From Oscillospiraceae bacterium (GTDB lineage Bacteria > Bacillota > Clostridia > Oscillospirales > UBA929): a stretch of DNA of 64,000 nt. The translations under genes were made by a program, and so were the position numbers. Below are positions 10,889 through 56,185 of this stretch, piece after piece. Below the pieces are notes generated by a model. The model searched no databases. It was not told where the DNA came from and was given only the letters and a program-made list of their open reading frames with translations. Each line of letters begins with the position of its first letter. Positions within the stretch are counted from its first letter, which is position 1. Location of the stretch: assembly GCA_031550325.1 (NCBI GenBank), contig JAVBOR010000030.1, positions 11,309-75,308 of the forward strand. Direction: 5' to 3'.

Positions 10889-10893
10889 AGCGA

Positions 10894-13836: not shown

Positions 13837-13844
13837 ACTCAGAC

Positions 13845-21944: not shown

Positions 21945-22069
21945 CAGCACATTCACGCGGCTTCGCTGAAAGTAGACCCAAACGGGGACTTTTCCGGGCC
22001 TTCGCTTGATGTGGAGGTCCGATTGTTTTTCTCCTCAGAAGGAGAGAGTTAGAGAAAGAGGTGTTTTTA

Positions 22070-28368: not shown

Positions 28369-28552
28369 TTTGTCAAAGAACCTCCGGTTCTTTGACAAAG
28401 CGGGGGTCTGGCTCGCGTCTTTGCGAAGATGCGCAAAGAAATGCTTTCCCGAAGTGAATCCGTGAAAGCGTTGTGGTTCAATCTTTTTCGGCTTTCAGTC
28501 CAGCAAGGACCTGCCGGCTGCGCCGTCAGGCTCGACATGAAAACCGAAAAAG
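28369..28552. repeat. Intergenic repeat locus R4 (modules A-B-D-E)
   Basis: A 28369-28399 TTTGTCAAAGAACC-TCCG-GTTCTTTGACAAA; degenerate B 28414-28433; D 28439-28472; E 28483-28552 (stem CTTTTTCGGCTTTC/GAAAACCGAAAAAG). Confidence 0.9.
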
Positions 28553-28586
28553 GACGAGGACGCGAGGGGTTCTTTAACAACCTAGG

Positions 28587-29398: not shown

Positions 29399-29442
29399 CT
29401 CTCCCGGGGCTGCCCAAAGCAGTTGCTCCGCACCTCCCAGGC

Positions 29443-29600
29443 TGATGATTAAACAGTTCCGATCCGAAGCCGCACAGCGGTGAGTTGTCAAATGGGGAAC
29501 ATTTCGCCGCATCCATGCCTTAATGCGGCAAAATGTTCCCCATTCTCTGGTTGAAAAAGCTTTAGAGTCTCGACTGCGAAGGACAAACTTGACAATCAAA
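29443..29600. repeat. Second repeat family F, copy 2 (inverted relative to copy 1)
   Basis: Homologous to the reverse complement of 13845-13995; contains a 19-bp hairpin at 29494-29541 (GGGGAACATTTCGCCGCAT...ATGCGGCAAAATGTTCCCC, 1 mismatch). Confidence 0.8.
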
Positions 29601-31116: not shown

Positions 31117-31159
31117 GTGGGCTGGGGACAGAGGCTGATAAAAGCCCCTCGCATGCTCG

Positions 31160-31378
31160 TCCTTTTCCTGGATTCACGTCGAGCCTGACGCCGAAGGCGG
31201 CGGGTTCTTGCCGGACCGGATCCAGGAAAAATATGAACCACAACGGTTTCGGGAGTTCATTTCTCGAAACCGTTTCTCGTCAAACCGCCTCAGCGGTTTG
31301 ATCCTGCTTTCGTTTTGTCTAAGAACCAAAGGTTCTTTGACAGGCTTAGGCTGCTCAAGAATCTAGGTTCTTTGACAG
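31160..31378. repeat. Intergenic repeat locus R5 (E-D inverted, G, A, plus a half-A inside the CDS end)
   Basis: E 31160-31231 (stem TTTCCTGGATTC/GGATCCAGGAAA); D 31242-31274 (AACGGTTTCG...CGAAACCGTT); G 31281-31300 CAAACCGC-CTCA-GCGGTTTG; A 31313-31343; half-A GGTTCTTTGACA 31366-31377. Confidence 0.85.
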
Positions 31379-33368: not shown

Positions 33369-33473
33369 ACGGGGTTTCGGTGCTTTCACAACAGCTAGAT
33401 GATTCAGGGCTCTCTTTTTGAGAGATACCTGGACAAGAGGATTTGGGTGAAAGTCTATTTTGAAGGTGATACG

Positions 33474-35471: not shown

Positions 35472-35503
35472 AGGATCCCCCTTGAGTATTCAAGGGGGAT
35501 CCT
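35472..35503 (+). terminator. Perfect 13-bp hairpin after the vWA gene (possible terminator, no U-tract)
   Basis: AGGATCCCCCTTG-AGTATT-CAAGGGGGATCCT, 19 nt after the stop. Confidence 0.45.
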
Positions 35504-35507
35504 CAGT

Positions 35508-36048
35508 CTGTAGACAAAGGCCGCCTCTTCGTTCCTTTGCGCAAAACCACGTCGAGCCTGACGCCGAAGGCAGCGGGTCCCTGCTGGACTGGTTGAGCGC
35601 AAAGCATGGAAACAAGTGACTTCCACGAATTCACTCCGGGAAAGTCACCCAATGCGCGTCTTCACAAAGACGCGTTCCTGCTCCCGTTTGTAGACAAATC
35701 GAAGGTTTGTCTACAGTCTCAACAAACCGCTGAGGCGGTTTGCAGGGAAACGGTTTTGAGAAATGAATTCCCGAAACCGTTGAGGTTCCTATTTTTCCTG
35801 GATTCAGTCCAGCAAGAACCTGTCACTTGCAGCGCCAGACTCGACGCGAATCCAGGAAAGGGACGAAGGCGCAAAGCTCCGGTTTGACTACAAAACGATG
35901 AAAAGTGATCGGCTCTGTGGAGCCTCCCAAAGAAAGGCTTTCCCGGAGTGAATCCGAGAAAGCCTTTCTATTTCATCTTTTGCGGTTCACATCCCAGAAA
36001 GGACCTTGCGGCTCCGGCCGCAAGGCTCGGCGTAAAAACCGCAAAAGG
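35508..36048. repeat. Intergenic repeat locus R6, largest array (209-bp composite plus G plus two further D-E units plus H)
   Basis: E 35533-35605(-), D 35612-35650(-), B 35655-35674, C 35688-35716, G 35722-35743, D 35746-35782, E 35792-35860, H 35886-35926, D 35932-35968, E 35976-36048. Confidence 0.9.
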
Positions 36049-36135
36049 ACGAGCGCGCGGGACTGTTGCTTTGCACCAAGCTCCAGTAGCTCCTGGAACA
36101 AGGCAGGTGAACACCCCACGCGGAGACTCCAGCTA

Positions 36136-36180
36136 TATAACAAAGTGTCAAAAAAACAGACAATTCGACAGTTTGTTATA
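36136..36180 (-). terminator. Hairpin downstream of addA (weak terminator candidate)
   Basis: TATAACAAAGTGTC ... GACAGTTTGTTATA (14-bp stem, 1 mismatch, 17-nt A-rich loop). Confidence 0.25.
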
Positions 36181-36227
36181 TGGAGAGGCCGTGGATGACC
36201 GTGTCGGCGGCGGTTCGGCTGATTTGT

Positions 36228-39200
36228 CTACTCCAGAGCCAGGGCCTGATCGATGGCGAAGAAATAGACGAGCTTTTCTCCGACCTCCAGCCCGGTCATG
36301 CGCTGTGCGGCGTGGGCGTAAGTCTCCAGCTGCACGCGGTAGTGCTCGGCGCGCGCTGGCGCGCCCTCGGGGCTTATGGAGTCAGTCTTGAAATCCAGCA
36401 CAATCAGCTTGCCGCTTTCGACGAAGAAGCAGTCAATAACGCCCTGCAGCAAAATCTCCTCCCCCATGGCTGTCGTGGCGCCGGTCAGGACGTCGGCGGG
36501 CTCGAGCATGGAAAACTTGCACTCCCTCCAGAGCCTTGTTGCCTTCAGGACGCGCTGGCCCAGGTCGCTCTGAAAGAACAAGGCTATTTTTTCGGGGGAC
36601 ACGGCGTCTGTTTGCTCGGGCGTGAGGATGCGCCGCTTTGCAAGGCGCGACAGCTCGCCCCGGACACCGCCGGCGCTCTGGCAAGCAGCATACGAAATAA
36701 ACTGCATGGCCAGATGGTAGGCCTGCCCGCGCTCCGGCCCCGATAAGCCGCGCCCGCGCGCTGGGCTTTGCGAAAGAAAGGTGCCGGTGCCCTCCCAAAC
36801 CTCAAGATCGGTATAGCGGCCCTTCAGCTGGGTCACCGTCATCTTGGACGGCAGGTCGACCGCGCCGGCGTAAGGGTAGACAAAGGCATCGCGCGCCTGA
36901 ATCGCGTCGCGTTCGGCGCCGGGGGCGGGCGCGGCGGTCAGTGCCGCCGGCGGGGCGGCCAGCCAGTCGGGCTCGGCCACGCCCAGCAGAAGATCCATGA
37001 AGCTGGAAGCCTCACGCAAGCTCTGCGCGGGCGTCGTCTCGCTGCCCAGCATGATCAGCTTGTTCTGCGCGCGCGTCATCGCGACATACAGCAGGCGCAG
37101 CTCTTCGGCCTTGTGCTCGCGCGTGAGCTCCTGCCGCACCGCGTGGTAGGCGGCGGTAGGGTACTCGCACAAGTCGGTGCGCCGCTTCAGGCCGCAGCCG
37201 GTCGTTTCGTGCATCAGGAGCTTGGCGTTCATATCGCGAAGGTTGTACGACCTGCCAAGGTCGGCCAGCACGACAACGGGAAACTCCAGACCTTTGGACC
37301 TGTGAATGGTCATGAGCCTGACGGCGCTGTCCGTGTGCACGCGGGTGCGGGAGAGTGTCTGCCGGTGAAGCCACGGCAGAAAGGCGGCCAGGCCGCTTTC
37401 GTGCGGGCAGGCTTGGGCAAGCTCTAAAAAAGCCATGAGATCGGCCTGGCCCTGTGCGTCAAACTTTGTGTCCAGATCGGTTTGCGCGTAAATACGCGAC
37501 ACCAGCCGCCACACGGGAAGGTCGGGCGCGAGGTAGCGCCACTGGCGCAGCAGAATGAGCAGCCGCTGGCTCTTGAGCTGCGTGTCGGCCAGCAGGCAGT
37601 CGTACAACGACAGCTCCGACACGGCGCGAAGCGACGCCAGCTCCTCGGCAGTAAACGCGAACGCGGGCGAGCGCAGCGCGGCGAGTAGCTGGACGTCGTT
37701 GCGCGGGTTGAGTGTGACCTCCAAAAGCGAGGTGATCGCCCGCACGGCGCCGGACTGTTCGTCCTCGGCAGCGTCGGAGTTTGCGTCCAGACCGGCGTCG
37801 CGCAGCGCCGCCAAATAGGCCGGCGCGCGGTTTTTCAGCGAGCGCAGCAAAATAACGCAGTCCCCCGGGCGGGCAAAACCCGCGTCGATGAGCGCGCGAA
37901 GCCGCGCAGCCACGGCGCGCGCCTGCTGAGCCAGCTTATCGCTCTCGCCTGTGTCGGGCAAGGCGATGAGCTCGACGGCGGGCTCCTGCTGCGGGGGAAA
38001 GCCCAGACCGCTCCTGAGGGGCGGCCCATAGTCCATCTCGGCGTCCGCGCGCGTCATCAGGCGCTCAAGCGTGTGGTTTACGGCCGAGAGAACCTCGGGC
38101 CGCGAGCGGAAGTTGCTGGTCAGATACACCTTGCACGGGCCGGCCGCCGCCTCGCTCCACAGCGCAAACTCGTCGAGCTTGCGCAGAAAGATGGTCGGGT
38201 CGGCGTGCTGGAACCTGTAAATGGACTGGCGCACGTCCCCCACATAGAACACATTGTCCCTGCCGGCGGACAGCGCGTCGATCAGCGCGTCCTGGCGCGC
38301 GTTGACGTCCTGGTACTCGTCGACCAGAATCTCGGCAAAGCGCGCGCTCACGGTCAGCCCTGTTTCGGTCGGGCGGCCGCTCTCGTCGGTGAGCAGGGAG
38401 AGCGCGGCAAGCTCATAGTCGGTGAAGTCGGCCAGCTTGCGCGCCGCCTTCTCCTGCCGGTAGGCCTCGTCAAAGCAATTCACGGCGAAAAAGAGCCCGC
38501 TGAGCACCTCCTGCGTGTCGGCGATGTCGGCAAGATTGTCCTCATGCGTGCAGGAGATGCGCTCGCACAGAGCCCCGACGCCCTTTTTCCAGCCGTCCCG
38601 CTCGGCGCGAAGGCCTTCGGCCTGATCCTTCGCGGCGTCGTCGACGGCTTTAAAGGGCTTGAGCTTGGCAAAGCTCAGCGCGTGAAGCGCCTCAAAGGCT
38701 TTGTCCCAGCCCGCGCCCAGCGCGCCGTCCAGCGCGGTCAGCGCGTCGATATCGCTCAGGAGCGCCGGCGCGTACGCCGTGTACAGCGCGGGATCGTCCA
38801 CGCCCTCCAGGGCGCTTTGCGCTTGGGCGCGCCACTTGGCCAGCTGATGGCGCGCGTCCTCCAGTACGAGCTCTTCCCAGAACTGTACGCGCCTGTCGGA
38901 GGCGCGCAGCTGCTCTGCCCGCCAGCCCGCCGGGCCGCGCATCGTTCGGGTCTTTCGCCAGGTTCTCTCGACAAGCTCCGAAACCGCCCTGTCACCGCGC
39001 ATGTCCACAAAGGCGTCGACAAAGCGCCCGAACTGCGGCAGCCCGCCGCCTTCCAGCTGGTCGTACAGCTCGTCCAGCACGCGGTTCAGGGTGTCGCCGA
39101 ACAGCCCGGCCGCCTCGCTGTCCTCGCAGACCCTGACGTCGGGCGGCAGGACGCTTTGGGCGGCGAACTCGCGCAGCAGCTCGACGCAGTACGCGTGCAG

Positions 39201-39503
39201 CGTGCAAATGCGCGCCGTGTACAGGCGGTTCAGCTGGCGGCGCAGATGGCGGCTATCCGGGTCGGCCTCCATGCGCCCGCGCAGCGCGCGGAGAATGCGC
39301 GCGCGCATCTCCCCGGCGGCGGCGCGCGTATAGGTGATGAGCAAGAAGTCGTCGATGTTGCGCGGGCAACTCTCGTCTGTGAGATAGGCCATCAGCCGCT
39401 CGACAAGCACAAGGGTCTTGCCCGCGCCTGCCGCCGCCGAGACCAAAACGGTGCGGCCGCGCAGCGTGACGGCGGCGTGTTGTTCATCCGTGAGCTCTCT
39501 CAT
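36228..39503 (-). CDS. addA: ATP-dependent helicase/nuclease subunit A (AddA)
   Basis: 1091 aa; UvrD-type motifs VSAAAGAGKT, ILVDEYQDVN, TIHRSKGLEFPVV; C-terminal RecB-type nuclease region (QGVIDCFF...LDFKTD). Confidence 0.9.
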   Translation of the reverse strand: MRELTDEQHAAVTLRGRTVLVSAAAGAGKTLVLVERLMAYLTDESCPRNIDDFLLITYTRAAAGEMRARILRALRGRMEADPDSRHLRRQLNRLYTARICTLHAYCVELLREFAAQSVLPPDVRVCEDSEAAGLFGDTLNRVLDELYDQLEGGGLPQFGRFVDAFVDMRGDRAVSELVERTWRKTRTMRGPAGWRAEQLRASDRRVQFWEELVLEDARHQLAKWRAQAQSALEGVDDPALYTAYAPALLSDIDALTALDGALGAGWDKAFEALHALSFAKLKPFKAVDDAAKDQAEGLRAERDGWKKGVGALCERISCTHEDNLADIADTQEVLSGLFFAVNCFDEAYRQEKAARKLADFTDYELAALSLLTDESGRPTETGLTVSARFAEILVDEYQDVNARQDALIDALSAGRDNVFYVGDVRQSIYRFQHADPTIFLRKLDEFALWSEAAAGPCKVYLTSNFRSRPEVLSAVNHTLERLMTRADAEMDYGPPLRSGLGFPPQQEPAVELIALPDTGESDKLAQQARAVAARLRALIDAGFARPGDCVILLRSLKNRAPAYLAALRDAGLDANSDAAEDEQSGAVRAITSLLEVTLNPRNDVQLLAALRSPAFAFTAEELASLRAVSELSLYDCLLADTQLKSQRLLILLRQWRYLAPDLPVWRLVSRIYAQTDLDTKFDAQGQADLMAFLELAQACPHESGLAAFLPWLHRQTLSRTRVHTDSAVRLMTIHRSKGLEFPVVVLADLGRSYNLRDMNAKLLMHETTGCGLKRRTDLCEYPTAAYHAVRQELTREHKAEELRLLYVAMTRAQNKLIMLGSETTPAQSLREASSFMDLLLGVAEPDWLAAPPAALTAAPAPGAERDAIQARDAFVYPYAGAVDLPSKMTVTQLKGRYTDLEVWEGTGTFLSQSPARGRGLSGPERGQAYHLAMQFISYAACQSAGGVRGELSRLAKRRILTPEQTDAVSPEKIALFFQSDLGQRVLKATRLWRECKFSMLEPADVLTGATTAMGEEILLQGVIDCFFVESGKLIVLDFKTDSISPEGAPARAEHYRVQLETYAHAAQRMTGLEVGEKLVYFFAIDQALALE

Positions 39504-42500
39504 GGCGTATCCCCCTCCCGAAGCGCCTGCCAGAATGACTGAAGCGAAAAGCTCTGCAACGGCGCGTCTTTCTCGCGCGAGGCGTCAAAGTAGCAGCATG
39601 GCGCAAAGTCGCAGTTGTCGCAGGCGCTGCTCTGGCCGCTCTCCCGCACGGGAACGGCGCGAACGTCCCCCCGGATCAGGTCGGAGGCCACCGCGCGCGT
39701 CAGGGCTTCGACGTGACGCCCCAGCCGCGCGAAATCTTCCCGGTCGCCCACCTGAGACCGCTGGTCGAGCTCGCCGCTCTTTTTGCGGTCAAACGGCAGA
39801 AGACCAGCGCCGTCCGGGCCGCTCATCGCCTCCAGCACGGCGTCGTCGGCCAGCAGAAGGCCGCGGCGCTTGAGGCCGGCGGACGGGCCGGGCAGCTGCG
39901 CGCCCGGATGGGACTTTAAGGTGAGAACCTCGTCGCGGGCGGGGACATAGAGCATCCCCGCGGGTTCGATGCGGTCGGCGCCGAACAGCCCGGCCCCCAG
40001 CTTGGCCAGCGTGAACAGATACAGCGGCAGCTGCAGCCCCAGGCCGTGATAGAGCTCCGAGACCGAAAAAATCTTTTTGCCGGTTTTGTAGTCGACAACC
40101 CGAAGATAGAGGGTGCCGTCAGGCCCGCGCCAGCCGTCCACGCGGTCAACCGCGCCCTCGACAAGCGCCGAAAAGCCGCCGGGCAGGCCGTCCACGCGGA
40201 CGGCGGGCAGCTTCCCGCCGCGGTCGGAAAAGCGCAGTTCATAGGCGAGCGGAGAGAACAGGGAAGCTTGCAGCTCGGCCAAAACATCGGCGGCGATGCT
40301 CACCGCCGAGCGGCGCAGCGTGTCGAACAGCCGCGCAAAGCGCCGCGTGTGCCCGGCAAAGCCTTTCAGGACGGTATTCTCGTAGGCGGTCGTATACATA
40401 GCGGCCCAGTCGCGCACCTGTTCGGCGGTCACGTTTGCCGCGCCGCCGGCGAGCTCTGTGTTTCGCCCGGTCTGCTCAAGCATGCCGTGGATAAACGCGC
40501 CGATGTCCAGCGGGGCAAACCCCGGCTGTTCGGTCGGGCGGGCGCGCAGCCCATACTGGCAGAAGTAGGCAAACCGGCAGGTGAACGCGCGCTGGAGTCT
40601 CGTCGCGCTGAAACGCAACTCCGTGCCGTACAGAGACGTGACGGCGTCGGGGGAGAGCGGCTCGCGCAGCTCGGGCGGCGGCGTAAAGGGCCGCACAACC
40701 GGGGGAAGCGCGGTGATCTCCACGCCGCAGAGCGCGCAGGCGCGGCTGAGCACGTCGGCGGGCAGCGCCTTGCCGTCGCCGTCTCTGGAAAAGCTCAGGT
40801 ACAGGGCGTCGGACGGAAGCGTCATGGCGGCATAGAGGTTGAACAACTCGCGCTCCAGCCTCTGCTCGCCGTCCGGCGGCATCTGCAGGTCAAACGCCTC
40901 CAGAACGGCGCGCTCCTCCAGGGACAGCAGCGAGTCGGTGTTCGGCACCATGGGCATCGCGTCGGCGCGCGCGCCGGGCAGAAACACAACGCGGGGCGAA
41001 TGCCGGCGCAGGCGGCCGCACTGGCCGATGCCGACGCGGTCAAGCGCGACCGGAATCGTGCCGACCTGGCAGCCGGACAGCAGCAAGAGCAAAAGATCCA
41101 TAAAGCCGTCCAGGTTCATCGGCGTATCTCCGAGAATCGAGGCGCACTCGTCCAGAGCCTCTACAAAAAGCTCCCAAAGCTGGGCGCACTCGTCGGCCAG
41201 CTTGAGCTCCCCAAGCGACCGAAGCGCCTCGATGCGGCGCTTCAGCGCGCGGTCAACGCGCATTTGCAAAAGGACTTGGAGCAGAAGCTTACTCCAGCCG
41301 GACGCGGTGCGTCCGCCGCGCAGCGCGGACAGCGGCGTGTGGATGAGGGCGCGCATACGGTTGACAAAGATAAGCGCGCGCGTGTCCTCCTCGGTCATCG
41401 TCTCGACATAGCCGCGCGGATGCAGCGTAAACGGTTTTGCCCACTGCGCGCCGTGGGGCCGCCACCGGCGCAGATAGGGCTCAAAGCGGTCAACCTGCTC
41501 GAGCGGCGCGCGGAACAGACCGGTGCGCAGCAGGACAAGCACGTCCTCGCTGCGCCAGCCGTACAGCGTGATGTCGGCGAGGGCGCGCAAAAACTGCGGC
41601 AGAGCTTTGCCGATGACGTCGTCGGTGCTGTCCATAAACACGGGAACGCCCTCGCGCTCAAAAGCCCGCTCAAGAAGCGGGCCGTAGAGGGGCAGGTCGT
41701 TGACGGCCACCTGCATGTCGCGGTAGCGCAGCCCGCCCGCCGCCAGGCGCTGGACTGTCTGGGCGATGACGGCGCACTCGTCCGAGACGGTTTGCGCGCA
41801 CAGCGCAGTGACGGCGCCGCCGCCGTCAACGGACAGCGTGGATCTGTCGAAAAAGTGCGCCTCCAGATGGGCCAGCGCGGGGGCGGAAAAGCGCCTTGGC
41901 TGTGTCAGGACGGTCTGCGTCGCGTCGCCGAGCGCTCTTGTAAGCGCGGCGGCCGTGCGCTGGGCGACCGGGAAGTCCTGACCGTCGGGCAGGCCGCACA
42001 GCGCGCAGAGAATCTGCCCCCGTCCCTGCGAGAACGCGCTCAAAACGTCGATTTCCTGCGGGGTAAACGTGACAAAGCCGTCCAAGAAAAGCCTCTTGTC
42101 CAACGCAAAAAAACTGTGGCGCAGCTTGTCCGCCAGCAGCGTCAGTCTGTCGCGCTTGTCCAGCGGGCCGGAGGCCAGCAGCGCGTTGTAAGAGGCGTAA
42201 ATCAGCGAAAGCTCACGCAATTTCAGCGCGGAGGAGCCCTTGGCCGCGTCTGAGGCCTGATGCAGGGCCTCGGGCGCAATGCCGTAGCATTTACACTCAT
42301 CCACGGTCTGGAGCAGCGAGGCCAAAAACGCGGGCTTGTGGGCGTTTTTGGCCCACAGGCTCAGCTGATCGCGCACCACGTCGACCGCGAGGCGCATGGT
42401 GAGAAGCCGCCCTCCGTCGGAGAGCGGCCGGCGGGCCAGACCGCCCTCCTGTCCAAACACGCGGTCGGCCAGCCGCCCGAACGTGAGCACCTCGGCGTGC

Positions 42501-42673
42501 AGGCAAATGGCCGGGCCGCCGTGCGCCGCCAAAAAACGCTCGCACTCGTGGGAGAAGGGCTCCGGAACAAGCCAGATCAGGCCCTCCTCGCCGTGCGCCG
42601 CGCGCGCGCAGATTTCATTAACGATTGTTGTCGTCTTGCCGCTTCCGGCGCGGCCCCAGAGAAGGTGCAGCAA
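39500..42673 (-). CDS. addB: ATP-dependent helicase/nuclease subunit B (AddB)
   Basis: GRAGSGKT P-loop near the N-terminus; C-terminal nuclease with Cys cluster (CDNCDFAPCC); ATGA overlap with addA. Start placed at TTG 42673 (GGGAGG RBS); the ORF-track extension to 42772 looks non-coding. Confidence 0.85.
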   Translation of the reverse strand: MLHLLWGRAGSGKTTTIVNEICARAAHGEEGLIWLVPEPFSHECERFLAAHGGPAICLHAEVLTFGRLADRVFGQEGGLARRPLSDGGRLLTMRLAVDVVRDQLSLWAKNAHKPAFLASLLQTVDECKCYGIAPEALHQASDAAKGSSALKLRELSLIYASYNALLASGPLDKRDRLTLLADKLRHSFFALDKRLFLDGFVTFTPQEIDVLSAFSQGRGQILCALCGLPDGQDFPVAQRTAAALTRALGDATQTVLTQPRRFSAPALAHLEAHFFDRSTLSVDGGGAVTALCAQTVSDECAVIAQTVQRLAAGGLRYRDMQVAVNDLPLYGPLLERAFEREGVPVFMDSTDDVIGKALPQFLRALADITLYGWRSEDVLVLLRTGLFRAPLEQVDRFEPYLRRWRPHGAQWAKPFTLHPRGYVETMTEEDTRALIFVNRMRALIHTPLSALRGGRTASGWSKLLLQVLLQMRVDRALKRRIEALRSLGELKLADECAQLWELFVEALDECASILGDTPMNLDGFMDLLLLLLSGCQVGTIPVALDRVGIGQCGRLRRHSPRVVFLPGARADAMPMVPNTDSLLSLEERAVLEAFDLQMPPDGEQRLERELFNLYAAMTLPSDALYLSFSRDGDGKALPADVLSRACALCGVEITALPPVVRPFTPPPELREPLSPDAVTSLYGTELRFSATRLQRAFTCRFAYFCQYGLRARPTEQPGFAPLDIGAFIHGMLEQTGRNTELAGGAANVTAEQVRDWAAMYTTAYENTVLKGFAGHTRRFARLFDTLRRSAVSIAADVLAELQASLFSPLAYELRFSDRGGKLPAVRVDGLPGGFSALVEGAVDRVDGWRGPDGTLYLRVVDYKTGKKIFSVSELYHGLGLQLPLYLFTLAKLGAGLFGADRIEPAGMLYVPARDEVLTLKSHPGAQLPGPSAGLKRRGLLLADDAVLEAMSGPDGAGLLPFDRKKSGELDQRSQVGDREDFARLGRHVEALTRAVASDLIRGDVRAVPVRESGQSSACDNCDFAPCCYFDASREKDAPLQSFSLQSFWQALREGDTP

Positions 42674-42803
42674 CCAAAATTCCTCCCAAAATCCGCTGGG
42701 CGGAGAAGATCTGCGCAGGCCGCCCCCGAATGATGCCGGGGGAGGCCTGCGCAATGTAAACCGTCTTCCCAATCCTTGGCGCGCCGAAAGAGTCCATTGA
42801 CAA

Positions 42804-43145
42804 GAGTTTTCCCCGACTCACTCCGGAAAAACCCTCTCTGCAAACCGCCTCAGCGGTTTGATCCAATCCTTCGCTTTGACAAGGAACCGGAGCCCTTTGT
42901 CAAAGGGTGTAAACAGAAGCGGTATCCGCGCTCCTTTGCGCAAAACCACGTCGAGCCTGACGGCGTAGCCGGCAGGTCCTTGCTGGACTGGTTTAGCGCA
43001 AAGGAGCGAAACAAGAGACTTTCACGGATTCATTCCGGGAAAGTCGTTCTCCGCGCGTCTTCGCAAAGACGCGATCTAAGCCCCCGTTTGTAGGCAAACC
43101 GAAGGTTTGCCTACAGCCTGCAAAGAACCGAAGGTTCTTTGTCAG
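42804..43145. repeat. Intergenic repeat locus R7 (D-G-A-E-D-B-C-A)
   Basis: G 42841-42860; A 42874-42905; E 42931-43006 (CTCCTTTGCGCAAAACC/GGTTTAGCGCAAAGGAG); D 43015-43046; B 43053-43073; C 43087-43116 (GTAGGCAAACC-GAA-GGTTTGCCTAC, compensated variant); A 43118-43145. Confidence 0.9.
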
Positions 43146-43152
43146 TTTATTG

Positions 43153-44991
43153 TTATTTTGTTGTCAGTGCGTTATAGAGCTGAACAAACGTGACGTCGGC
43201 CATCTCGCGCGAGAAGGTCATTTTGGGCTCAAAGCCCTTGGCGGTGCCGTTCATGATGCCGTTGGCCGAGACGTAGTCAACAGCGCTCGTTGCCCATGAG
43301 GAGATCGTGGCCTTGTCGGAAAAGCTGTTGGCCGGGGCAGCCGACATGAGCCCGAGCGAGCGCACGGTGTTGGCCAGCATGACGGCCGCCTGCTCGCGGG
43401 TGATGTCCCCGTTCGGGTCGAAGATGGTCGTGGACTTGCCCGCTACGACGCCCAGCTTGTTGGCCGCCACGATGACCTTGTCGCTGGTGTCGGTAAACGT
43501 GTTGGTCGAAAGGTCGATGCCGCGTTCGGCGATCAGCTGGTCGAGCGTTTTGCCGGTCACCGACTCCATGAGCATGACCGCCTGAAGGCAGAACTCGGCG
43601 CGCGTGGCGTTTTTCTTGTAGTCGCCGATCAGCGAAGCGGGGATCAGATTATGGGCGTAAGCCGCCTCGATGTGCACGGTCGCCCACGAGCTGGCCTCGC
43701 CGAGCTTGAGGTCGACAGGAAGCTCGCCGGGCACGCGGACGCCCGACAGAATTTGAACGGGACTCATGCGCCCGGTGGCCGAACCGTCGCCAATCGAGCC
43801 CTCTGTGTTGCTTTGGCCCCAGGACCACAGCGTGCCGTCCTTTTTCAGCGCCAGCGTACTGTAGTTGCTGAGTACGGCGCTTTCAACCCCGTCAAGAACC
43901 TTGACAGGAGCCGAACGGTTTTCTTCGGTGCTGTCGCCGAGCTGTCCATAGAGGTTGTCTCCCCACATCCACAGCGAGCCGTCGGCCTTCAGCGCGCCGA
44001 AATGTACGGCCCCGCTAAAGAGTGAGGCAGCGCCCGTCATCTTCAGCGCCGGCTGGCTTCTGGAGAATACTATTCTGGTCTCGGTTGATTCAACCGAAAG
44101 CGTAGCCTGATAAACGTCTCCGTTTTGCTTAAGCATGACGACATCCTGAATACCGTTGACAATGCTGACCACCCCGTCGGCGTACTTTTCAGGTGTTTCG
44201 ACAAAGTCTACATTGGCGGTTGTGGACGTGACATTTAATCCCTTCACCCCCCAGAACCACACGGTACCGTTGGTCTTCAGGGCAAAGGTCCCTATCAGAT
44301 CTCCGGAAACCGCGGCAACGTCGCTGAGCAGCTGAGACGGGGCCGTCGAGCCGCTTGCTCCCAGATATTCGCTCATTCCATAGTATTTGTCGCCCCAAGT
44401 CCAGAGGGTGCCGTCCAGCTTGACCGCCATGCCCTGGTAGATGTGGATGTCCATGTTGCGAACGCCGTCCATGAGTTTGACCGGGCTCAGCCGGTCCCTC
44501 GTCGTGCCGTCGCCGATCAAACCGTTTGCGTTGCTTCCCCAGCTCCAGAGACTGCCGTCCTTTTTCAGCATCAGCTGCGTCTCGCCGTTTGTAGTGACGC
44601 TTTTGACGTCTTTGGCGATCTCAACGGGGCTCGGCCGATCGACCCTGCTGCCGTCGCCGAGGTAACCTACATTGTAACCCCAGCCCCAGAGCGTGCCGTC
44701 CTTTGTGATTGCGTAGTTGGTTTCGCCTATCGCCATGACGGAGATGACGTCAGTCATGACTTTGACCGGGCTCAGCCGGTCGGTCGTCGTGCCGTCGCCA
44801 ATCTGGCCGTAGTTGTTGAATCCCCAGCACCACAGTGAGCCGTCGGCCTTAATGGCCATGCCGCCGTCCAATCCGGTGTCAAATGTGCGCGTGAGGCGTT
44901 CCTGGGGCGCGACCGCGTCCGCGGCGAGGGCTGGCAACGCTGATAACAGCATGAGAAGGGCAAGAACCAGACAAAGTAATCGTTTTTTCAT
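43153..44991 (-). CDS. Secreted RCC1-repeat beta-propeller protein with three C-terminal SLH-like domains (paralog 1)
   Basis: Signal peptide [23 protein letters not shown] (GGAGGA RBS); repeated GSLW.WG.N..GQ(L/I)GDG units; C-terminal ...[14 protein letters not shown], ...[16 protein letters not shown]. Confidence 0.8.
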
Positions 44992-45132
44992 AATAATTCC
45001 TCCAAAACTAGCAAAGTAGTCTTCACGGCGCGGCCCGCCAACCGTTGCGTCCGGGCGGCGCGTGAAGCTCAAATGTTATTCCCAGATGACGCCCATCGGA
45101 GGTACGCTAAAAAGCCGCCAGGCTCTCCAGCT

Positions 45133-45406
45133 TGCAGACAAAGAGGGCTTTGTCTACAAAACGATGACAAATGATCGGCTCTGTGGAGCCTCATAAAGGA
45201 ATGTTTTCCCGGAGTGAATCCGTGAAAGCATTGCGGTTTAATATTTTGCGGTTTTTGTCCCAGCAAGGACCTTGCGGCTCCGGCCGCAAGGCTCGGCGTA
45301 AAAACCGCAAAAGGACGAGAGCGCGTAAGGTTTATCTTCAGTCTGACGTCTGCCGCCGAAGGCGGCAGACCCTCGTTTTGACAAAGAACCTATGGTTCTT
45401 TGTCAG
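45133..45406. repeat. Intergenic repeat locus R8 (C-H-D-E-hairpin-A)
   Basis: C 45133-45158; H 45155-45192; D 45198-45234; E 45242-45313 (ATTTTGCGGTTTTT/AAAAACCGCAAAAG); hairpin GTCTGCCGCC-GAA-GGCGGCAGAC 45348-45370; A 45376-45406. Confidence 0.9.
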
Positions 45407-45413
45407 TTTATTA

Positions 45414-47222
45414 TCAGTTTGCTGTCAGTGCGTTATAGAGCTGAACAAACGTGACGTCGGCCATCTCGCGCGAGAAGGTCAGTTTGGGCTCAAAGCCCTT
45501 GGCGGTGCCGTTCATGATGCCGTTGGCCGAGACGTAGTCAACAGCGCTCGTGGCCCAGGAGGAGATCGTAGCCCGGTCGGAAAAGCTGTTGGCCGGGGCA
45601 GCCGACATGAGCCCGAGCGAGCGCACGGTGTTGGCCAGCATGACGGCCGCCTGCTCGCGGGTGATGTCCCCGTTCGGGTCGAAGATGGTCGTGGACTTGC
45701 CTGCCGCGACGCCCAGCTTGCTGGCCGCCACGATGACCTTGTCGCTGGTGTCGGTAAACGTGTTGGTCGAAAGATCGATGCCGCGCTCGGCGATCAGCTC
45801 GTCGAGTGTTTTTCCGGTCACCGACTCCATGAGCATGACCGCCTGAAGGCAGAACTCGGCGCGCGTGGCGTTTCTGGTGTAGCTGCCGATCAGCGAAGCG
45901 GGGAGCAGATTGTTGGCGTAAGCCGCCTCGATGTGCACGGTCGCCCACGAGCTGGCCTCGCCGAGCTTGAGGTCGACAGGCGGAAGCGGCATGCCGGTCA
46001 GCACTTTCAGCGGATAGGTGATGTGCGTGCCCAGGCCGGCGTCGTCGACATTCTGTCCGTTCAGGCCGCAGACCCAAAGACTGCCGTCTGTTTTCTCAAT
46101 CATGGTGCTGGTTCCGCTGACAAACGGCAGCGAAAGCACGTCCAGAGACATGGTCTTGACCGGGGCCGCGCGGTCAACGACAGTGCCGTCGCCGAGCTGT
46201 CCGAAATGATTGGTCCCGCGGGACCAGAGCGAGCCGTCCTTGAGAAGGAAGGAGGTCTGCGTCTGCGCGCTGACCATGGACACGACGTTTTCAATCAGCT
46301 TGACGGCGGGCTGGCGCGTCATCGACGTAACGCCGGATTTGGTCTCCGGCGGCGTCTCGATCGTCCAGGCCACGCCGGCGGTATTCAGGTAGTTCAGCGC
46401 GTACAGCTCGGCAGTGACGCCCGTAACGCCGGTCAGCTGCCTGACGGGCGCGGCGTCCAGGGTCACGCTGTCCTTGGCCAGCGTCTTCAGGCCCCAAACA
46501 TAAAGCGTCGAATCCTCGAGGACGGCGCCGGCCAGCGTCTGCCCCAGCGCGAACGCCTTGACGTTTTCCAGCACCTTCACAGGAGAGGTTCCGTCGGTCT
46601 GCGCGCCGAGAAGCCCGTATCTGGACTGGCCCCATGACCAGAGGCTTCCGTCCGTTTGGAGGGCAAGGGTTTGATCGCCGTTGGTGGCGACGTCCAGCAC
46701 ATCGTCCATCACTTTAAAGGGCTCAAGCGGGTTGGTTTTTCCCGCCGCAAGATAGCCGTGGTCGATCCCCCAGCACCAGAGGCTGCCGTCCGTTTGAACG
46801 GCGTAGGTAAACGTCGCGCCGGGCACCACGAGAGAGACGTCCGGGAAAATATAGGTCGGCGTGAGCCGGTGAGCGGCGTCGCCGGTGCCCAGGATTCCGT
46901 TGGTGTTTCTTCCCCAGGCGTAGAGGTCGCCGTTGTCCAGAACGGCAAATGACGAGCGGTTATAGGCGAACACGGCGCGCACGCCGTCCCGCAGGTTGAC
47001 CGGCGAGGGGCGGGCGTTGATGCCGCCGTCGCCAAGCTGTCCATAGTGGTTGGCGCCCCAGGAGTACAACGTTCCGGTGGCGGTGACTGCCAGAAAGTGG
47101 TTCTGCCCGGCGGCGTACGCGTGGCCAAGCCGGTCTGCCGGCGTCTGCGCCGCGAGGCTGTGCCCTGCAAGGGACAGGACAAGTGCGAGGGCCAGCGCGA
47201 TGCTCAGAATTTTGCGTTTCAT
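45414..47222 (-). CDS. Secreted RCC1-repeat beta-propeller protein with three C-terminal SLH-like domains (paralog 2)
   Basis: Signal peptide MKRKILSIALALALVLSLAGHSLA; RCC1-type repeats; C-terminal ~190 aa nearly identical to paralog 1. Confidence 0.8.
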   Translation of the reverse strand: MKRKILSIALALALVLSLAGHSLAAQTPADRLGHAYAAGQNHFLAVTATGTLYSWGANHYGQLGDGGINARPSPVNLRDGVRAVFAYNRSSFAVLDNGDLYAWGRNTNGILGTGDAAHRLTPTYIFPDVSLVVPGATFTYAVQTDGSLWCWGIDHGYLAAGKTNPLEPFKVMDDVLDVATNGDQTLALQTDGSLWSWGQSRYGLLGAQTDGTSPVKVLENVKAFALGQTLAGAVLEDSTLYVWGLKTLAKDSVTLDAAPVRQLTGVTGVTAELYALNYLNTAGVAWTIETPPETKSGVTSMTRQPAVKLIENVVSMVSAQTQTSFLLKDGSLWSRGTNHFGQLGDGTVVDRAAPVKTMSLDVLSLPFVSGTSTMIEKTDGSLWVCGLNGQNVDDAGLGTHITYPLKVLTGMPLPPVDLKLGEASSWATVHIEAAYANNLLPASLIGSYTRNATRAEFCLQAVMLMESVTGKTLDELIAERGIDLSTNTFTDTSDKVIVAASKLGVAAGKSTTIFDPNGDITREQAAVMLANTVRSLGLMSAAPANSFSDRATISSWATSAVDYVSANGIMNGTAKGFEPKLTFSREMADVTFVQLYNALTAN

Positions 47223-47246
47223 TATGTAAACTCCCTTTTGATCAAA

Positions 47247-47279
47247 TCGCCCCCGATCCGCAAACGGAAACGGGGGCGA
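47247..47279 (-). terminator. Hairpin downstream of eno (possible terminator)
   Basis: TCGCCCCCG/CGGGGGCGA 9-bp stem, 15-nt loop; on the minus strand followed by TTTGATC. Confidence 0.4.
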
Positions 47280-47290
47280 AAAAACAGCGT

Positions 47291-48616
<1,326 letters not shown>

Positions 48617-48664
48617 TTAAAGTGGGGAGGAAGCCCTCCCGTCAAAAAAACCGTGAGGCTTGCG

Positions 48665-50185
48665 CTAGCTGACAATCAGGGACACGCCGGTCATTTCGGC
48701 GGGCTTTTCCAGCCCGAGAAGATCCAGAATGGTCGGGCAGATGTCACACAGGCGTCCGGGGTGAAGCGTGCCCCGCGCTCCATACAGGATGAAGGGGACG
48801 GGACTGGTGGTGTGGGCCGTAAACGGCGTTACGCCGTCCGGCTCGAGCATCTGGTCGGCGTTGCCGTGGTCGGCGGTGATGAGCGCAATGCCCCCGACCT
48901 CCGAAATGGCCTCTATGACCCGGCCGACGCAGGCGTCAACCGTTTCCACGGCGCTCTTCGCGGCGCTGAACACGCCGGTGTGGCCGACCATGTCGCAGTT
49001 GGCGTAATTGAGGACGATCACGTCATATTTCCCGTTGTGAATGCTCTCCACCACGGCGTCGGTGACGGGAATCGCGCTCATCTCAGGCATGAGGTCATAT
49101 GTCGCGACCTTGGGGGAGGGGACCAAAATGCGGTCCTCGCCCGGAAATACCCGCTCCTCGCCGCCGTTAAAGAAAAACGTGACGTGGGCGTATTTTTCGG
49201 TTTCGGCGATGCGCAGCTGGGTCAGTCCGATACGGCTGACGTACTCGCCAAAAATGTTGGTGAGCTTATCCGGCTGAAAGGCGACGGCGACGTTGGGCAT
49301 GGACGCGTCATACTGCGTTGTACAGACATACGTCAGAGGGAAGTACCCCTCACGCCGCGCAAAGCCCGAAAACGCGGGGTCGACAAACGCGCGGGTGATT
49401 TCGCGCGCGCGGTCGGGCCGGAAATTGGTGAAAATCACACTGTCGTTCGGTGAGACGCTGGCGCCCTTTACGCAGACGACCGGCTGAACAAACTCGTCGG
49501 TCACTCCGGCGTCATAGGAGGCCTGGACTGCCGAGACGGGATCGGGTAGGAATGTCCCCTCTCCGTACGCAAGCGCGGCGTACGCGCGTTCAACGCGCTC
49601 CCAGCGGTTGTCGCGGTCCATGGCGTAATAACGGCCCATCACGGTGGCCACCTGCCCGGTGATCGAGGCGCATTTGGCCACGGCTTCTTCCACAAAGGCC
49701 TTTCCCGACATCGGCGGAACGTCCCGCCCGTCGAGGAAGCAGTGCAGAAAAACCTTGCTCAGCCCACGCTTCTTGCACAGCTCCAAAAACGCCCAGGTGT
49801 GGGTGTTGTGGCTGTGCACGCCGCCGTCCGACATGAGCCCCATGAGGTGGAGCGCCGAACCGTGCGCCAGGCAGTTGTCGATCGCGGCGTTAAAGGCGGC
49901 GTTCTGAAAAAAGTCACCGTCTTCAATGGACTTGGTGATGCGCGGGAGATCCTGATAGACGACGCGCCCGGCACCGATGTTGGTGTGTCCGACTTCACTG
50001 TTGCCCATCTGACCGTTCGGCAGGCCGACGTCCAGCCCCGACGCGCTCAGCGTCGTGTGGGGACACTCGGCAAACAGCCTGTCCAGATGAGGCGTCTCGG
50101 CCGCCCTGACGGCGTTGCCCGGCCCGTCGGGGCCAAGGCCGAACCCATCGAGGATCAAGAGCGCCAACGCTTGCTTTTTGCTCAT
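48665..50185 (-). CDS. gpmI: 2,3-bisphosphoglycerate-independent phosphoglycerate mutase
   Basis: 506 aa; [39 protein letters not shown]. Confidence 0.95.
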
Positions 50186-50952
50186 TGGTTCGCCGCCTGA
50201 ACAATGGTGGAAAAGTCATCGGCCTTCAGCGAAGCGCCGCCGATCAGACCGCCGTCGATATCCGGCTGCGCCAGAAGCTCAACAGCGTTTGAGGCGTTCA
50301 TGGAGCCGCCGTACAAAATGGATACGGCGCGCGAGGCGCGGGCGCCGTACAGCTTGCGGATGGTGGTGCGGATAAACATGCAGACCTCCTGCGCCTGCTC
50401 GGACGTGGCGGTCTTGCCGGTTCCGATCGCCCATATCGGCTCGTACGCAAAAATGACGTGGCGCAGCTTGGCGGCCGGAATGGCGGACAGCGCGGATTTG
50501 ACCTGCAGCGCGATGAGATCGGTCGTGATGCCCATTTCGCGCTGCTCCAGGCTCTCGCCGACGCAGACGATCGGGTGAAGATCCTCTGCCAGCGCGGCGG
50601 AGATCTTTTGGGCCACCAGGGCGTCGGTCTCTCCAAAATACTGGCGGCGCTCGCTGTGTCCGATGATGACGTATTTTGCGCCGGAGTTTTTCAGCATGGA
50701 GGCCGAGATCTCTCCGGTGTAGGCGCCGGAGGTTTCCTGATGCAGGTTCTGGCCGCCCACGGCAATGCGGCTGTCCTTGAGCGCGCGCACGGCGAGGGGG
50801 ATGTCAACAAACGGGACGCAGCACACGACTTCGCACCATTTGGCCTTAAAGATTTTCTGTTTCATCTCGTCGAGCAGCACGCGGGCATCAGCGGGAGTCT
50901 TGTTCATTTTCCAGTTTCCGGCAATCACTGTTTTGCGGTATCTTCTGTTCAT
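50182..50952 (-). CDS. tpiA: Triosephosphate isomerase
   Basis: Start at [19 protein letters not shown] (GAAGGTGGG RBS); [21 protein letters not shown]. Confidence 0.95.
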
Positions 50953-51050
50953 GCGATAACCCACCTTCTATTTTTCGAAATTTATGGTGCACACGGATTG
51001 GGCTGGCTCAGTGGTGTGCGTTGTCCGCGAAATAACGGAAAGCGCGCCGC

Positions 51051-52241
51051 CTATTTGTCCTCCAGACAGGCAACGCCGGGAAGCTCCAGACCCTCCAGGA
51101 ACTCAAGCGACGCTCCGCCGCCCGTGCTGACATGCGTCATCTTGTCGGCGAATCCAAGCTGCGCAACCGCCGCCGCGCTGTCGCCGCCGCCAATGATGCT
51201 GATCGCGCCGCTGTTGGCGATGGCTTCGGCAACGGCCTTCGTGCCGCCCGAAAACGCGTCGAACTCGAAAACGCCCATGGGACCGTTCCACACCACGGTT
51301 CCGGCTGATGCAATATGCGCCGAGAACAGTTTAATGCTCTCGGGGCCGATGTCAAGGCCCATCAGGCCGTCGGGAATGCCGACCGAGGGGCAAATGATCG
51401 GCTTGGCGTCGGCCGCGAAGTGGTCGGCGCAAAGCGTGTCGACGGGAAGCAGGAAGTCGACGCCCTTTTCCTTGGCCTTCTTGAGCATCTCCAGCGCGTA
51501 GGCGAGCTTATCCTCTTCAAACAGCGAGTTGCCCACGGTGCCGCCCTGCGCCTTGACGAAGGTGTAGGCCATGGCGCCGCCGATGATGATGCAGTCGCAC
51601 TTGTCCAGAAGGTTGTTGATGACGCCGATCTTGTCCGACACCTTGACCCCGCCCAGAATGGCCACAAACGGACGCTTGGGATCGTTGAGCGCCTTGCCCA
51701 TGATGTCGATCTCTTTCTGGATGAGGTAGCCGCACACCGAGGGAAGATAGGCCGAGACGCCCGCGGTTGAGGCGTGGGCGCGGTGCGCCGTGCCAAACGC
51801 GTCGTTGACGTAGATGTCGGCAAGAGACGCCAGCTTTTGAGAAAACTCCGGATCGTTCTTTTCCTCTTCTTTATGGAAGCGGACGTTCTCCAGCAGAACA
51901 ACGTCGCCGTCCTTCATGGCGGCTGCCTTGGCCTGGGCGTCAGGCCCGATGACGTCGGACGCAAGGGCGACCGGGCGGCCAAGAAGCTCGGAGAGCCTTT
52001 TGGCAACAGGCGCCATGGAGTATTTGGCGTTGACTTCGCCCTTGGGACGGCCCAGATGAGAGCACAGAATGACTCCGGCGCCATGCTCAAGCAGGTAGTT
52101 AATGGTGGGCAGGGACTCGACAATGCGCTTGTCGGCGGTGATGTTGCCCGCCTCGTCCTGGGGGACATTAAAGTCGCAGCGAACAAGAACGCGTTTGCCT
52201 TTCACCGGAATGTCTTCAATGGTCTTTTTGTTGACGTTCAT
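51051..52241 (-). CDS. pgk: Phosphoglycerate kinase
   Basis: 396 aa; [33 protein letters not shown]; GGAGGA RBS. Confidence 0.95.
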
Positions 52242-55675: not shown

Positions 55676-56128
55676 CTGTCAAAGAACGTGTGCTTTCGCT
55701 TTGTGAAAGCACACGTTCTTTGACAAAGCGGGGGTTGGATCAAACCGCTGTGGCGGTTTGCAGAGTAGGGCGTTCCCGGAATGAATCCGGGAACGCCCTA
55801 AGACTGTAGACAAACCTTCGATTTGTCTACAAACGGGAGCAGGAACGCGTCTTTGTGAAGACGCGCATTGGGTGACTTTCCCGGAGTGAATCCGTGAAAG
55901 TCACTTGTTTCCATGCTTTGCGCTCAACCAGTCCAGCAGGGCCTAGCCGCCTTCGGCGTCAGGCTCGACGTGGTTTTGCGCAAAGGAACGAAGAGGCGGC
56001 CTTTGTCTACAGGCAGACAAACCGAAGGTTCGATGGGAAACGGTTTCGAAGAGTGAAATCCCGAAACCATTGTGGTTCATTTTTTTTGGATTCAATCCAG
56101 CAAGAACCTGTCGGCTGCGCAGCTGAGA
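55676..56128. repeat. Intergenic repeat locus R9 (A-G-D, 209-bp composite, then a D-E unit)
   Basis: Extended A 55676-55728 (20-bp perfect stem GTCAAAGAACGTGTGCTTTC/GAAAGCACACGTTCTTTGAC); G 55741-55760; D 55766-55800; C 55804-55832; B 55845-55865; D 55871-55904; E 55915-55987; D 56036-56073; truncated E 56082-56128. Confidence 0.9.
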
Positions 56129-56185
56129 GCAGGGCTTTGCGGAAGTTACTTCCGCAAAGCCCTGCTCTTGTTTACTCTTTTTGGT
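56127..56185 (+). terminator. Strong rho-independent terminator after the repeat array downstream of proBA
   Basis: GAGCAGGGCTTTGCGGAAGT / ACTTCCGCAAAGCCCTGCTC (20-nt perfectly complementary arms) followed by TTGTTTACTCTTTTTGG. Confidence 0.7.

Follow-up and report, generated by a model that had tools for sequence, protein, structure and literature searches.

Diverged RCC1-like propellers on a near-identical SLH anchor: probable partial gene conversion between two tandem genes of an Oscillospiraceae bacterium

Two tandem genes with a common 3ʹ block

In this work, we analyzed two neighboring genes, here called A and B, in a stretch of 64,000 nucleotides from an Oscillospiraceae bacterium (GenBank assembly GCA_031550325.1, contig JAVBOR010000030.1, positions 11,309 to 75,308), the whole of which is referred to below as the window. 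The genes are arranged head to tail on the minus strand, and their products share one architecture, with a head resembling the RCC1 beta-propeller and an anchor of three S-layer homology (SLH) domains at the C-terminus (Table 1). A blastn comparison of the two gene regions gave one ungapped alignment of 599 nt, with 95.16% identity, 29 mismatches, 0 gaps and E = 0, and no alignment at the DNA level between the genes outside this block. The first 300 nt of the block were picked up by the repeat search too, at 96% identity. The block comprises the last 188 codons of each gene, the stop codon (TAA and TGA) and 32 nt downstream, and its two copies form direct repeats that lie 2261 bp apart, start to start.

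The 5ʹ edge of the block coincides with the proline that opens the inter-domain linker (P425 in A and P415 in B). The first 66 nt of the block are identical in both genes, and the bases just upstream of it match at chance level. At the protein level, the anchors (188 residues) are 94% identical, with 12 differing residues, which are concentrated in SLH1, and the propellers are 33% identical. An initial annotation, made by eye, had placed the block at 43118-43719 and 45381-45980 with an identity of about 95%, which was right within 3 nt; it had also estimated about a dozen differences between the C-termini, set the identity boundary at the linker and described the propellers as diverged, all of which agrees with our alignments. 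Its protein lengths of 639 and 602 amino acids are correct for the open reading frames (ORFs), that of gene A spanning 43153-45072. Translation of A most likely begins with the ATG at 44991, which gives 612 amino acids, as a GGAGG ribosome-binding site stands 7 nt upstream of it and the predicted signal peptide, starting with MKKRLL, is similar to the N-termini of the homologs. Gene B has an AAGGGAG ribosome-binding site 8 nt before its ATG.

Table 1. Positions of the two genes, their parts and the adjoining elements in the window (H1, hairpin following the stop codon; GC3, GC content at third codon positions)
Feature	Position	Strand	Remarks
Gene A	43153-44991	-	612 aa: signal peptide (predicted), RCC1-like beta-propeller, linker, three SLH domains
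Gene B	45414-47222	-	602 aa; architecture as gene A
Predicted Sec signal peptide of A	44923-44991	-	followed by ADA; read from the sequence
Predicted Sec signal peptide of B	47151-47222	-	putative, MKRKILSIALALALVLSLAGHSLA / AQT; same basis as for A
Propeller-coding part of A (mature N-terminal region)	43720-44922	-	seven WxWG repeats and one degenerate repeat
Propeller-coding part of B	45981-47150	-	33% protein identity to the propeller of A
Block copy 1, in A	43121-43719	-	linker, SLH1-3, stop codon, hairpin H1; from blastn
Block copy 2, in B, probable donor	45382-45980	-	from blastn; donor role from GC3 and linker
Hairpin H1 of gene A	43120-43142	.	member of a six-copy family; 3ʹ end of the block
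Hairpin H1 of gene B	45381-45403	.	member of a six-copy family
A-B spacer	44992-45380	-	second hairpin after B, dispersed-repeat copy 45149-45325, upstream region of A
Spacer downstream of A	42809-43119	-	stacked strong hairpins, dispersed repeat family; blastn matches to 55801-55987, 35530-35729 and 28395-28536

Silent sites, domain trees and direction of transfer

The divergence of A and B was estimated by the Nei-Gojobori method on their codon alignment. In the propellers, the synonymous divergence (dS) was 1.55, i.e. saturated, and the nonsynonymous divergence (dN) was 0.71, with 31 of 94 four-fold degenerate sites identical (33%). The corresponding values in the block were 0.084 for dS, 0.034 for dN and 99 of 105 identical four-fold sites (94%). 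The dS step is 18-fold and falls exactly at the domain boundary (codon 425 of A), and in windows of 60 codons the identity climbs from 0.36-0.61 to 0.93-0.98 within about 30 codons; the divergence is thus not uniform along the genes. Since silent sites show the same step as the protein, differential protein constraint after a single duplication is excluded, and the block is much younger than the remainder of genes A and B.

The best full-length homologs of A and B are proteins of about 40% identity with the same RCC1-SLH architecture. One homolog, P0018, comes from an Oscillospiraceae metagenome-assembled genome (MAG), GCA_031556035.1. We built neighbor-joining trees (200 bootstraps) for 14 RCC1-SLH proteins, separately for the propeller (374 columns) and for the anchor (174 columns), and the two trees are in conflict. 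In the propeller tree, B groups with P0018 and another homolog, P0021, as (B,(P0018,P0021)) at 100%, with A as the sister of that clade at 95%. In the anchor tree, A and B are paired at 100%, and this pair is the sister of (P0018,P0021) at 96%. The propeller of B is 41% identical to that of P0018, as compared to 33% between A and B, and the anchors of A and B, which are so close to each other, are each about 50% identical to those of P0018 and P0021. As the propeller of B groups with P0018 and P0021 and that of A stands outside, the duplication that gave rise to A and B is older than the split from the P0018 and P0021 lineages. The conflict between the trees, in turn, indicates that the anchors were homogenized after the duplication by non-reciprocal transfer. 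The initial annotation had proposed gene conversion (or a recent partial duplication), with homogenization of the anchoring module while the propellers diversify. The dS step and the tree conflict, as two independent tests, support the first part, in the sense of a non-reciprocal transfer of the 3ʹ end; as to the second, the propellers are diverged indeed, but as ancient paralogs and not since a recent duplication, B being nearer to proteins of other genomes.

To see how far this identity reaches, the 188-residue anchor was compared by HMMER with 1.84 billion representative proteins, which yielded 34,537 SLH relatives and, besides A (100%) and B (94%), no anchor above 53% identity. The window encodes two further SLH proteins, one with N-terminal SLH domains (2123-4798, plus strand, 891 aa) and one with C-terminal SLH domains (22061-23410, plus strand, 449 aa), both with only 21-31% identity to the A/B block in their SLH parts. 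In MAG GCA_031556035.1, an SLH anchor of the same type on a non-RCC1 protein is 39% identical to the anchor of P0018. The metagenome locus L006 has two more SLH genes behind an RCC1-SLH gene; here, the first two anchors are 37% identical, and the anchor of the third gene gave no detectable match. With these values (39% in the related MAG, 37% in L006 and 21-31% in the window) we rejected the idea that homogenized anchoring is a general trait. The homogenization is a specific event of the A/B pair, general neither to SLH genes nor to this region of the genome.

The direction of the transfer was judged from base composition and from the linker. The GC3 value is 0.724 in the propeller part of A and 0.856 in its block, and 0.807 and 0.862, respectively, in B; the block differs from the A propeller (Fisher p = 3e-4) and not from the B propeller (p = 0.11). 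The linker PVDLKLxEASSWA is common to the A/B block and P0018, and P0021 has PIDPRLNEASSWA in its place. The last blade of B (GQNVDDAGLGTHITYPLKVL) continues from the blades of P0018 and P0021, and the last blade of A resembles the group of P0008, P0060 and P0003, whose linker is without four of these residues. Because the GC3 of the block departs from the propeller of A and not from that of B, and because the linker is shared with relatives of the B propeller, B was probably the donor and A the recipient, which these data indicate weakly. The 12 differing residues, compared with the outgroups P0018 and P0021, gave no direction signal from amino-acid states. Several points weaken this evidence. 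The GC3 of the A propeller is ordinary (the 41 other genes of the window have a mean of 0.770 with a standard deviation of 0.046), and it is the block that is the outlier, being the highest in the window (0.86, with a maximum of 0.84 among the other 41 genes). Moreover, the ancestral anchor of A could have had the same linker, and the GC3 contrast may have another cause.

Edges of the block and competing explanations

At its 3ʹ end, the block includes a palindromic hairpin, H1 (CAAAGAACC-NNN-GGTTCTTTG), which forms the last 22-27 nt or so of the block, within the 32 nt past the stop codon. H1 is present in six copies in the window, i.e. after A and B (Table 1) and at 6754-6776, 13809-13831, 28373-28395 and 31318-31340, with 0 copies expected by chance. 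Several of them lie 12-45 nt downstream of the stop codons of unrelated genes, and H1 is a terminator-like module common to these genes, which on the gene strand lacks a clear U-tract. The segment AATAAACTG, located between the stop codon and H1, is specific to A and B, and thus the copied tract reaches at least to the hairpin. However, since H1 recurs at four other sites of the window, the 3ʹ edge of the tract is less certain than the 5ʹ edge. At the 5ʹ junction, the only microhomology was GCTTCC, a match of 6 nt with an offset of one codon, which is indistinguishable from chance.

The spacer between A and B and the spacer downstream of A share inverted repeat modules only and have no direct similarity. 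The RNA fold of 42929-43152 is a stack of hairpins (-110 kcal/mol, z = -9.25). Rfam gave no match at gathering thresholds in the whole window and none at E <= 1 in 42700-45450, and no tRNA genes were found. We also considered an invertible segment around A, bounded by the inverted stretches 43019-43042/45205-45228 and 42948-42986/45260-45299. It was rejected, because these stretches are copies of dispersed repeats that occur at about nine other places in both orientations.

These dispersed repeats are hairpin-rich mosaics that fill most of the larger spacers of the window in both orientations, with identities of 75-100%. They were located at 4830-4945, 6751-6989, 13758-13999, 26671-26720, 28369-28583, 29439-29577, 31132-31343, 35472-36059, 42809-43152, 45149-45413 and 55677-56168. 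As an example, 35508-35719 matches 56012-55801 with 97% identity over 212 nt, and many of the modules are self-complementary. The family looks like an element of the repetitive extragenic palindrome or bacterial interspersed mosaic element (REP/BIME) type.

The explanation that we consider quite probable is that A and B are old paralogs in which the anchor end of about 0.6 kb was later replaced by partial gene conversion, or by an equivalent 3ʹ replacement, most likely from B to A. Both paralogs would carry a Sec signal peptide and an RCC1-like propeller head that is exposed and presumably binds a ligand. Long after their duplication, about 0.6 kb would have been copied non-reciprocally, in a tract that starts with the first linker codon, includes the stop codon and runs into the terminator-like hairpin. 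The 5ʹ edge of the tract would be the place where DNA homology between the paralogs stops, and the 3ʹ edge would fall in a hairpin shared with the dispersed repeat family, which may have provided the downstream homology. The 29 differences (dS 0.084) would then have gathered since the transfer. As a result, two unlike propellers would be displayed through almost identical anchors bound to one wall receptor, and the 599-bp direct repeats would form a substrate for more conversion, or for a recombination that could delete the propeller of A, with a predicted 2261-bp deletion that joins the propeller of B to the anchor of A. The direction and the recombination mechanism are what we infer in this scheme, for which one transfer event suffices; repeated, ongoing concerted evolution would go beyond the data.

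The following points weigh against this explanation. The propellers have no DNA homology from which a RecA-type conversion could start, which leaves the mechanism at the 5ʹ junction unexplained. Secondly, A and B are known from one genome, and the searches for sister genomes, which would bear on the timing, number and direction of the events, found none. The scan of genome contigs with the anchor alignment found only two distant loci, with 36-43% identity; scans of metagenomes by peptide patterns and by a wobble-degenerate 56-nt pattern gave no match; and no contig came up when protein A and enolase were looked up exactly. The 90%-identity clusters of enolase, pgk, gpmI, alr (alanine racemase) and addA each have a single member in a collection of about 15 billion proteins, and the host is a very poorly sampled lineage of about 60% GC, probably Oscillospiraceae-like. 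Thirdly, the tandem layout is seen in one assembly only, and its source seems to be a metagenome-derived contig. The Logan assembly of run SRR23967709 (L008), the same run that also holds the organism of P0018, reproduces 36024-42864, including addA-addB, at 100% identity, but its contig ends inside dispersed repeats on both sides, before gene A. A look-up for protein A in this assembly found no full-length A gene; B was not looked up.

The observed pattern could also result from true concerted evolution, that is, from repeated conversion of the anchors, possibly with selection for anchors matched to a lineage-specific wall polymer; we regard this as rather unlikely. The identical runs within the block measure 66, 60, 52, 126, 69 and 59 nt and the differences between them are clumped, as a patchwork of conversion tracts would give. 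However, the permutation test for the longest run (126 nt) is marginal (p = 0.027), and uneven constraint along the SLH domains could yield the same clumping. GC-biased conversion could cause the high GC3 of the block, and conversion would find a good substrate in tandem direct repeats of 600 bp. Against this stands the dS of 0.084, which implies that no conversion over the whole block took place for a considerable time. The other SLH genes discussed above, in the window, in L006 and in the related MAG, are not homogenized; in view of the last two, a matched anchor is evidently not required.

Alternatively, a partial duplication with domain shuffling could have fused, by illegitimate recombination, a propeller gene that was brought in from another place and had no SLH anchor of its own lineage to a duplicated 3ʹ end of B. 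The razor-sharp 5ʹ junction at the linker, with no flanking homology, would fit such a fusion, and so would the two-part composition of A and the occurrence of SLH anchors of this kind on many unrelated N-terminal domains in related organisms. Still, the propeller of A lies inside the RCC1-SLH clade (95% bootstrap) and all of its relatives carry a C-terminal SLH trimer, so that replacing an anchor already present takes fewer assumptions than a new fusion. In addition, the GC3 of A is within the normal range of the window, and past hairpin H1 nothing is duplicated downstream in direct orientation. Taken together, domain shuffling appears distinctly unlikely.

A more speculative form of the conversion scheme, which is improbable in our opinion, would treat the anchor and the terminator hairpin as a portable "anchor cassette". 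Hairpins and repeats would then give the downstream homology for overwriting of the 3ʹ end, and GC-biased conversion would explain the high GC3 of the block. If true, repeats would help surface proteins to exchange their wall anchors by this route.

An assembly artefact, in which the tandem layout or one copy of the block was made by the assembler through a shared repeat, is highly improbable. In its favor, all housekeeping proteins tested from the window are singletons that come from one 97-kb NCBI contig, the Logan assembly breaks in dispersed repeats, and the run of 126 identical nucleotides is beyond the resolution of short k-mers. A duplicated or collapsed repeat would nevertheless be identical, whereas the copies differ at 29 spread positions, including the 12 amino-acid changes. 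Both ORFs are intact and belong to different genes, each with its own ribosome-binding site, signal peptide and downstream sequence, and this speaks against the assembly duplication that the initial annotation had mentioned as a possible source of the high identity. Even if the adjacency were wrong, near-identical anchors on very different propellers would remain, and the main conclusion would hold. Finally, a recent duplication of the whole gene, with fast diversification of the propeller and strong purifying selection on the anchor, is compatible with the protein pattern alone (33% versus 94%) and can be given practically no credence, as synonymous and four-fold sites show a step that selection on the protein cannot make, the propeller of B is nearer to proteins of other genomes than to that of A (100% bootstrap), and the DNA identity runs on past the stop codon.

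Propeller, anchor and related systems

The domain assignment was based on Pfam and on comparison with solved structures. WD40_RLD (PF25390) scored 194.4 bits for A and 172.4 bits for B (cut-off 150), RCC1 (PF00415) 106 and 98 bits, and RCC1_2 88 and 93 bits, respectively. The SLH family (PF00395) matched two stretches in each protein, with 53.9 bits for A and 48.0 bits for B (cut-off 20.8); the first SLH unit scores under the per-domain threshold of Pfam. In a phmmer search against solved structures, the closest hits were UVR8 (7e-33), HERC2 (8e-27) and RCC1 (5e-14), and the anchor matched the SLH domains of Bacillus anthracis Sap (6BT4, 3PYW) with E = 1e-13. The hallmarks defined for the SLH domains of Paenibacillus alvei SpaA and B. 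anthracis Sap are Trp13, GIIxG (Gly29) and TRAE (Arg43), and the motif arginine binds the pyruvate ketal (PMC6081394). In A and B, SLH1 has SSW...NATRAEF with a degenerate GIIxG motif, SLH2 has LGVVAG...ITREQ and no Trp, and SLH3 has SSW...NGIMNG...FSREM. The motif arginine is kept in all three units of both proteins, as far as can be read from their sequences.

We also prepared an AlphaFold2 model of A from an alignment of 51 sequences (mean predicted local distance difference test score, pLDDT, 90.9; predicted template modeling score, pTM, 0.74). The model starts with a helix at residues 2-18, corresponding to the predicted signal peptide, and continues with a disordered, low-confidence stretch at 19-31. 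According to DSSP, the propeller consists of eight four-stranded beta-meanders, which correspond to the seven WxWG repeats and one degenerate repeat (about residues 259-302). The anchor is modeled as three helix pairs (435-446/464-479, 505-512/532-545 and 565-576/595-611), with a mean pLDDT of 89-98 in nearly all blocks of 10 residues. The top PDB matches of the model in Foldseek were UVR8, the RCC1-like domains (RLDs) of HERC2, RCC1, RPGR and BLIP-II, all with probability 1.0, a template modeling (TM) score on the target of 0.54-0.73 (0.6-0.73 for the best matches) and a root-mean-square deviation of 5-6 Å. The RCC1-SLH proteins may be eight-bladed surface propellers, in a barely sampled lineage of Clostridia.

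Anchoring of A and B to the wall via the SLH trimer is well founded by homology. Most likely, both proteins are exported by the Sec pathway, attach non-covalently through the SLH domains to a pyruvylated secondary wall polymer, and display two propeller faces for binding; surface exposure, binding of the wall polymer and the binding role of the propeller are predictions. One observation weighs against it: among the scanned ORFs of the window there was no csaB or pyruvyl transferase gene. Our results suggest that proteins combining an RCC1-like propeller and an SLH anchor make up a sizeable family in Clostridia. Our full-text literature search pairing RCC1 with SLH terms gave no paper characterizing such a protein, in line with the view of the initial annotation that propellers of this kind on the bacterial surface are poorly characterized.

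Within gene A, blades retain notable similarity at the DNA level, with 80% identity over 90 nt (44470-44559 vs 44755-44844) and 86% over 44 nt (44480-44523 vs 44765-44808). The blades of the homolog P0008 (5441-6561 of L006) are 72-79% similar in DNA over 150-860 nt. Blades in the RCC1-SLH family may therefore have been amplified recently or have undergone conversion within the gene. P0008 heads the row of three SLH-anchored genes on the metagenome contig L006, in which the heads are RCC1, Flg_new_2 and beta-helix, and upstream of the row is a gene for a protein of 933 aa that contains sigma-70 regions 2 and 4 (gene coordinates on the contig are 2188-4989, 5309-7162, 7225-8430 and 8649-10595). 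The first 640 bp of this sigma-70-type gene recur with 88% identity at the other end of the row (2172-2813 vs 10673-11316), suggesting a repeated unit of a regulator plus surface proteins.

In the window, the A/B pair is flanked by addA/addB (36228-42772, minus strand) on one side and by the glycolytic genes eno, gpmI, tpiA and pgk (47291-52241, minus strand) on the other. Only 68 nt separate the stop codon of eno from the start of gene B (47223-47290). This gap holds a GC-rich hairpin (CGCCCCCG...CGGGGGCG), a weak T-tract and the good ribosome-binding site of B; because little space remains for a promoter, transcription of B may come from read-through of the glycolytic operon. In the 421-nt spacer upstream of gene A, a simple promoter scan gave no convincing site on the strand of the gene. 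Elsewhere, the window is rich in putative surface proteins, which besides the two SLH proteins described above include two with leucine-rich repeats (4976-6739, plus strand, 587 aa, and 56437-59100, plus strand, 887 aa), and it has two long ORFs with coding-like GC3 and no Pfam match at E <= 1e-5 (33399-35453, plus strand, 684 aa, and 7845-9116, minus strand, 423 aa).

Gene conversion between bacterial paralogs is textbook knowledge (tufA/tufB, rRNA operons, pilE/pilS). The A/B case resembles these examples in that a non-reciprocal transfer within one genome is seen as a block of low dS with a tree conflict, but here the tract covers one domain of a two-domain protein and ends at the linker, with no sign of programmed variation. 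Our literature search pairing S-layer homology with gene conversion found nothing directly relevant. In B. anthracis, the adjacent S-layer genes sap and eag share an SLH anchor. As in A and B, these are neighboring genes for wall-anchored surface proteins whose three-SLH anchors are far more alike than their functional domains. However, the SLH trimer of Sap and EA1 is N-terminal and joined to an S-layer lattice domain, whereas in A and B it follows an RCC1-like propeller at the C-terminus; the anchor identity of A and B is also far higher (94%) and clearly recent at synonymous sites.

In slpA/slpB and in the sapA homologues of Campylobacter fetus, a near-identical end that binds the wall or the lipopolysaccharide is a recombination substrate and the remainder is divergent. 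SlpA and SlpB of Lactobacillus acidophilus are highly similar and oppositely oriented (PMC10221546). These systems are like A and B in being paralogous surface-protein genes with one near-identical anchor-coding end. They differ in that the copies are inverted and that inversion of the promoter or of a segment switches expression, whereas the copies in A and B are direct and code for an SLH anchor; both A and B have their own start signals, and a silent cassette or an invertase is not evident. The CWB2 family of Clostridioides difficile, e.g. CwpV, combines a conserved wall-binding module with a variable exposed domain, as described in two reports (PMC3080850, PMC2784873). Its anchor is CWB2 (PF04122) and not SLH, and the variation is between strains, with expression switched by DNA inversion; it is not known to involve partial gene conversion between tandem paralogs.

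As to the separate modules, the SLH trimers of SpaA and SlhA of P. alvei, which bind pyruvylated wall polymer (PMC6081394; 6CWC and related entries), are likewise made of three SLH domains in tandem and carry Trp13, GIIxG and TRAE-type motifs, but the sequence match of the A/B anchor to SpaA is weak (E = 0.0011). The propellers match UVR8, RCC1 and the HERC2 RLDs in sequence and fold, and BLIP-II in fold; these proteins are, however, seven-bladed, in comparison to the eight beta-meanders in the model of A, and A and B are anchored to the wall through SLH domains. BLIP-II, an RCC1-like propeller secreted by bacteria whose sole activity is the tight binding of a protein, may serve by analogy as the closest model for a binding role on the surface. 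The resemblance of A and B to RCC1-like proteins implies no link to Ran, UV-B or beta-lactamase, and guanine-nucleotide exchange on Ran or another known RCC1 activity would not be expected of secreted bacterial proteins.

Surface-protein paralogs that share a near-identical anchor end are already well known, and the A/B pair is an ordinary, unusually clean case, which reveals no new mechanism and settles no open question. What is new here is the family with an RCC1-like propeller and an SLH anchor, possibly with eight blades, and the unusually clean limitation of the tract to one domain. As an example of domain-limited gene conversion, the pair is documented quantitatively, and it comes from a Firmicute that is uncultured and poorly sampled. 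In practical terms, trees of full-length proteins would wrongly present A and B as recent duplicates, and assemblers are likely to break or mis-join contigs at the block. For the organism itself, the propellers of A and B probably compete for the same wall receptor, and the direct repeats could permit the loss of A or further exchange between the two genes.

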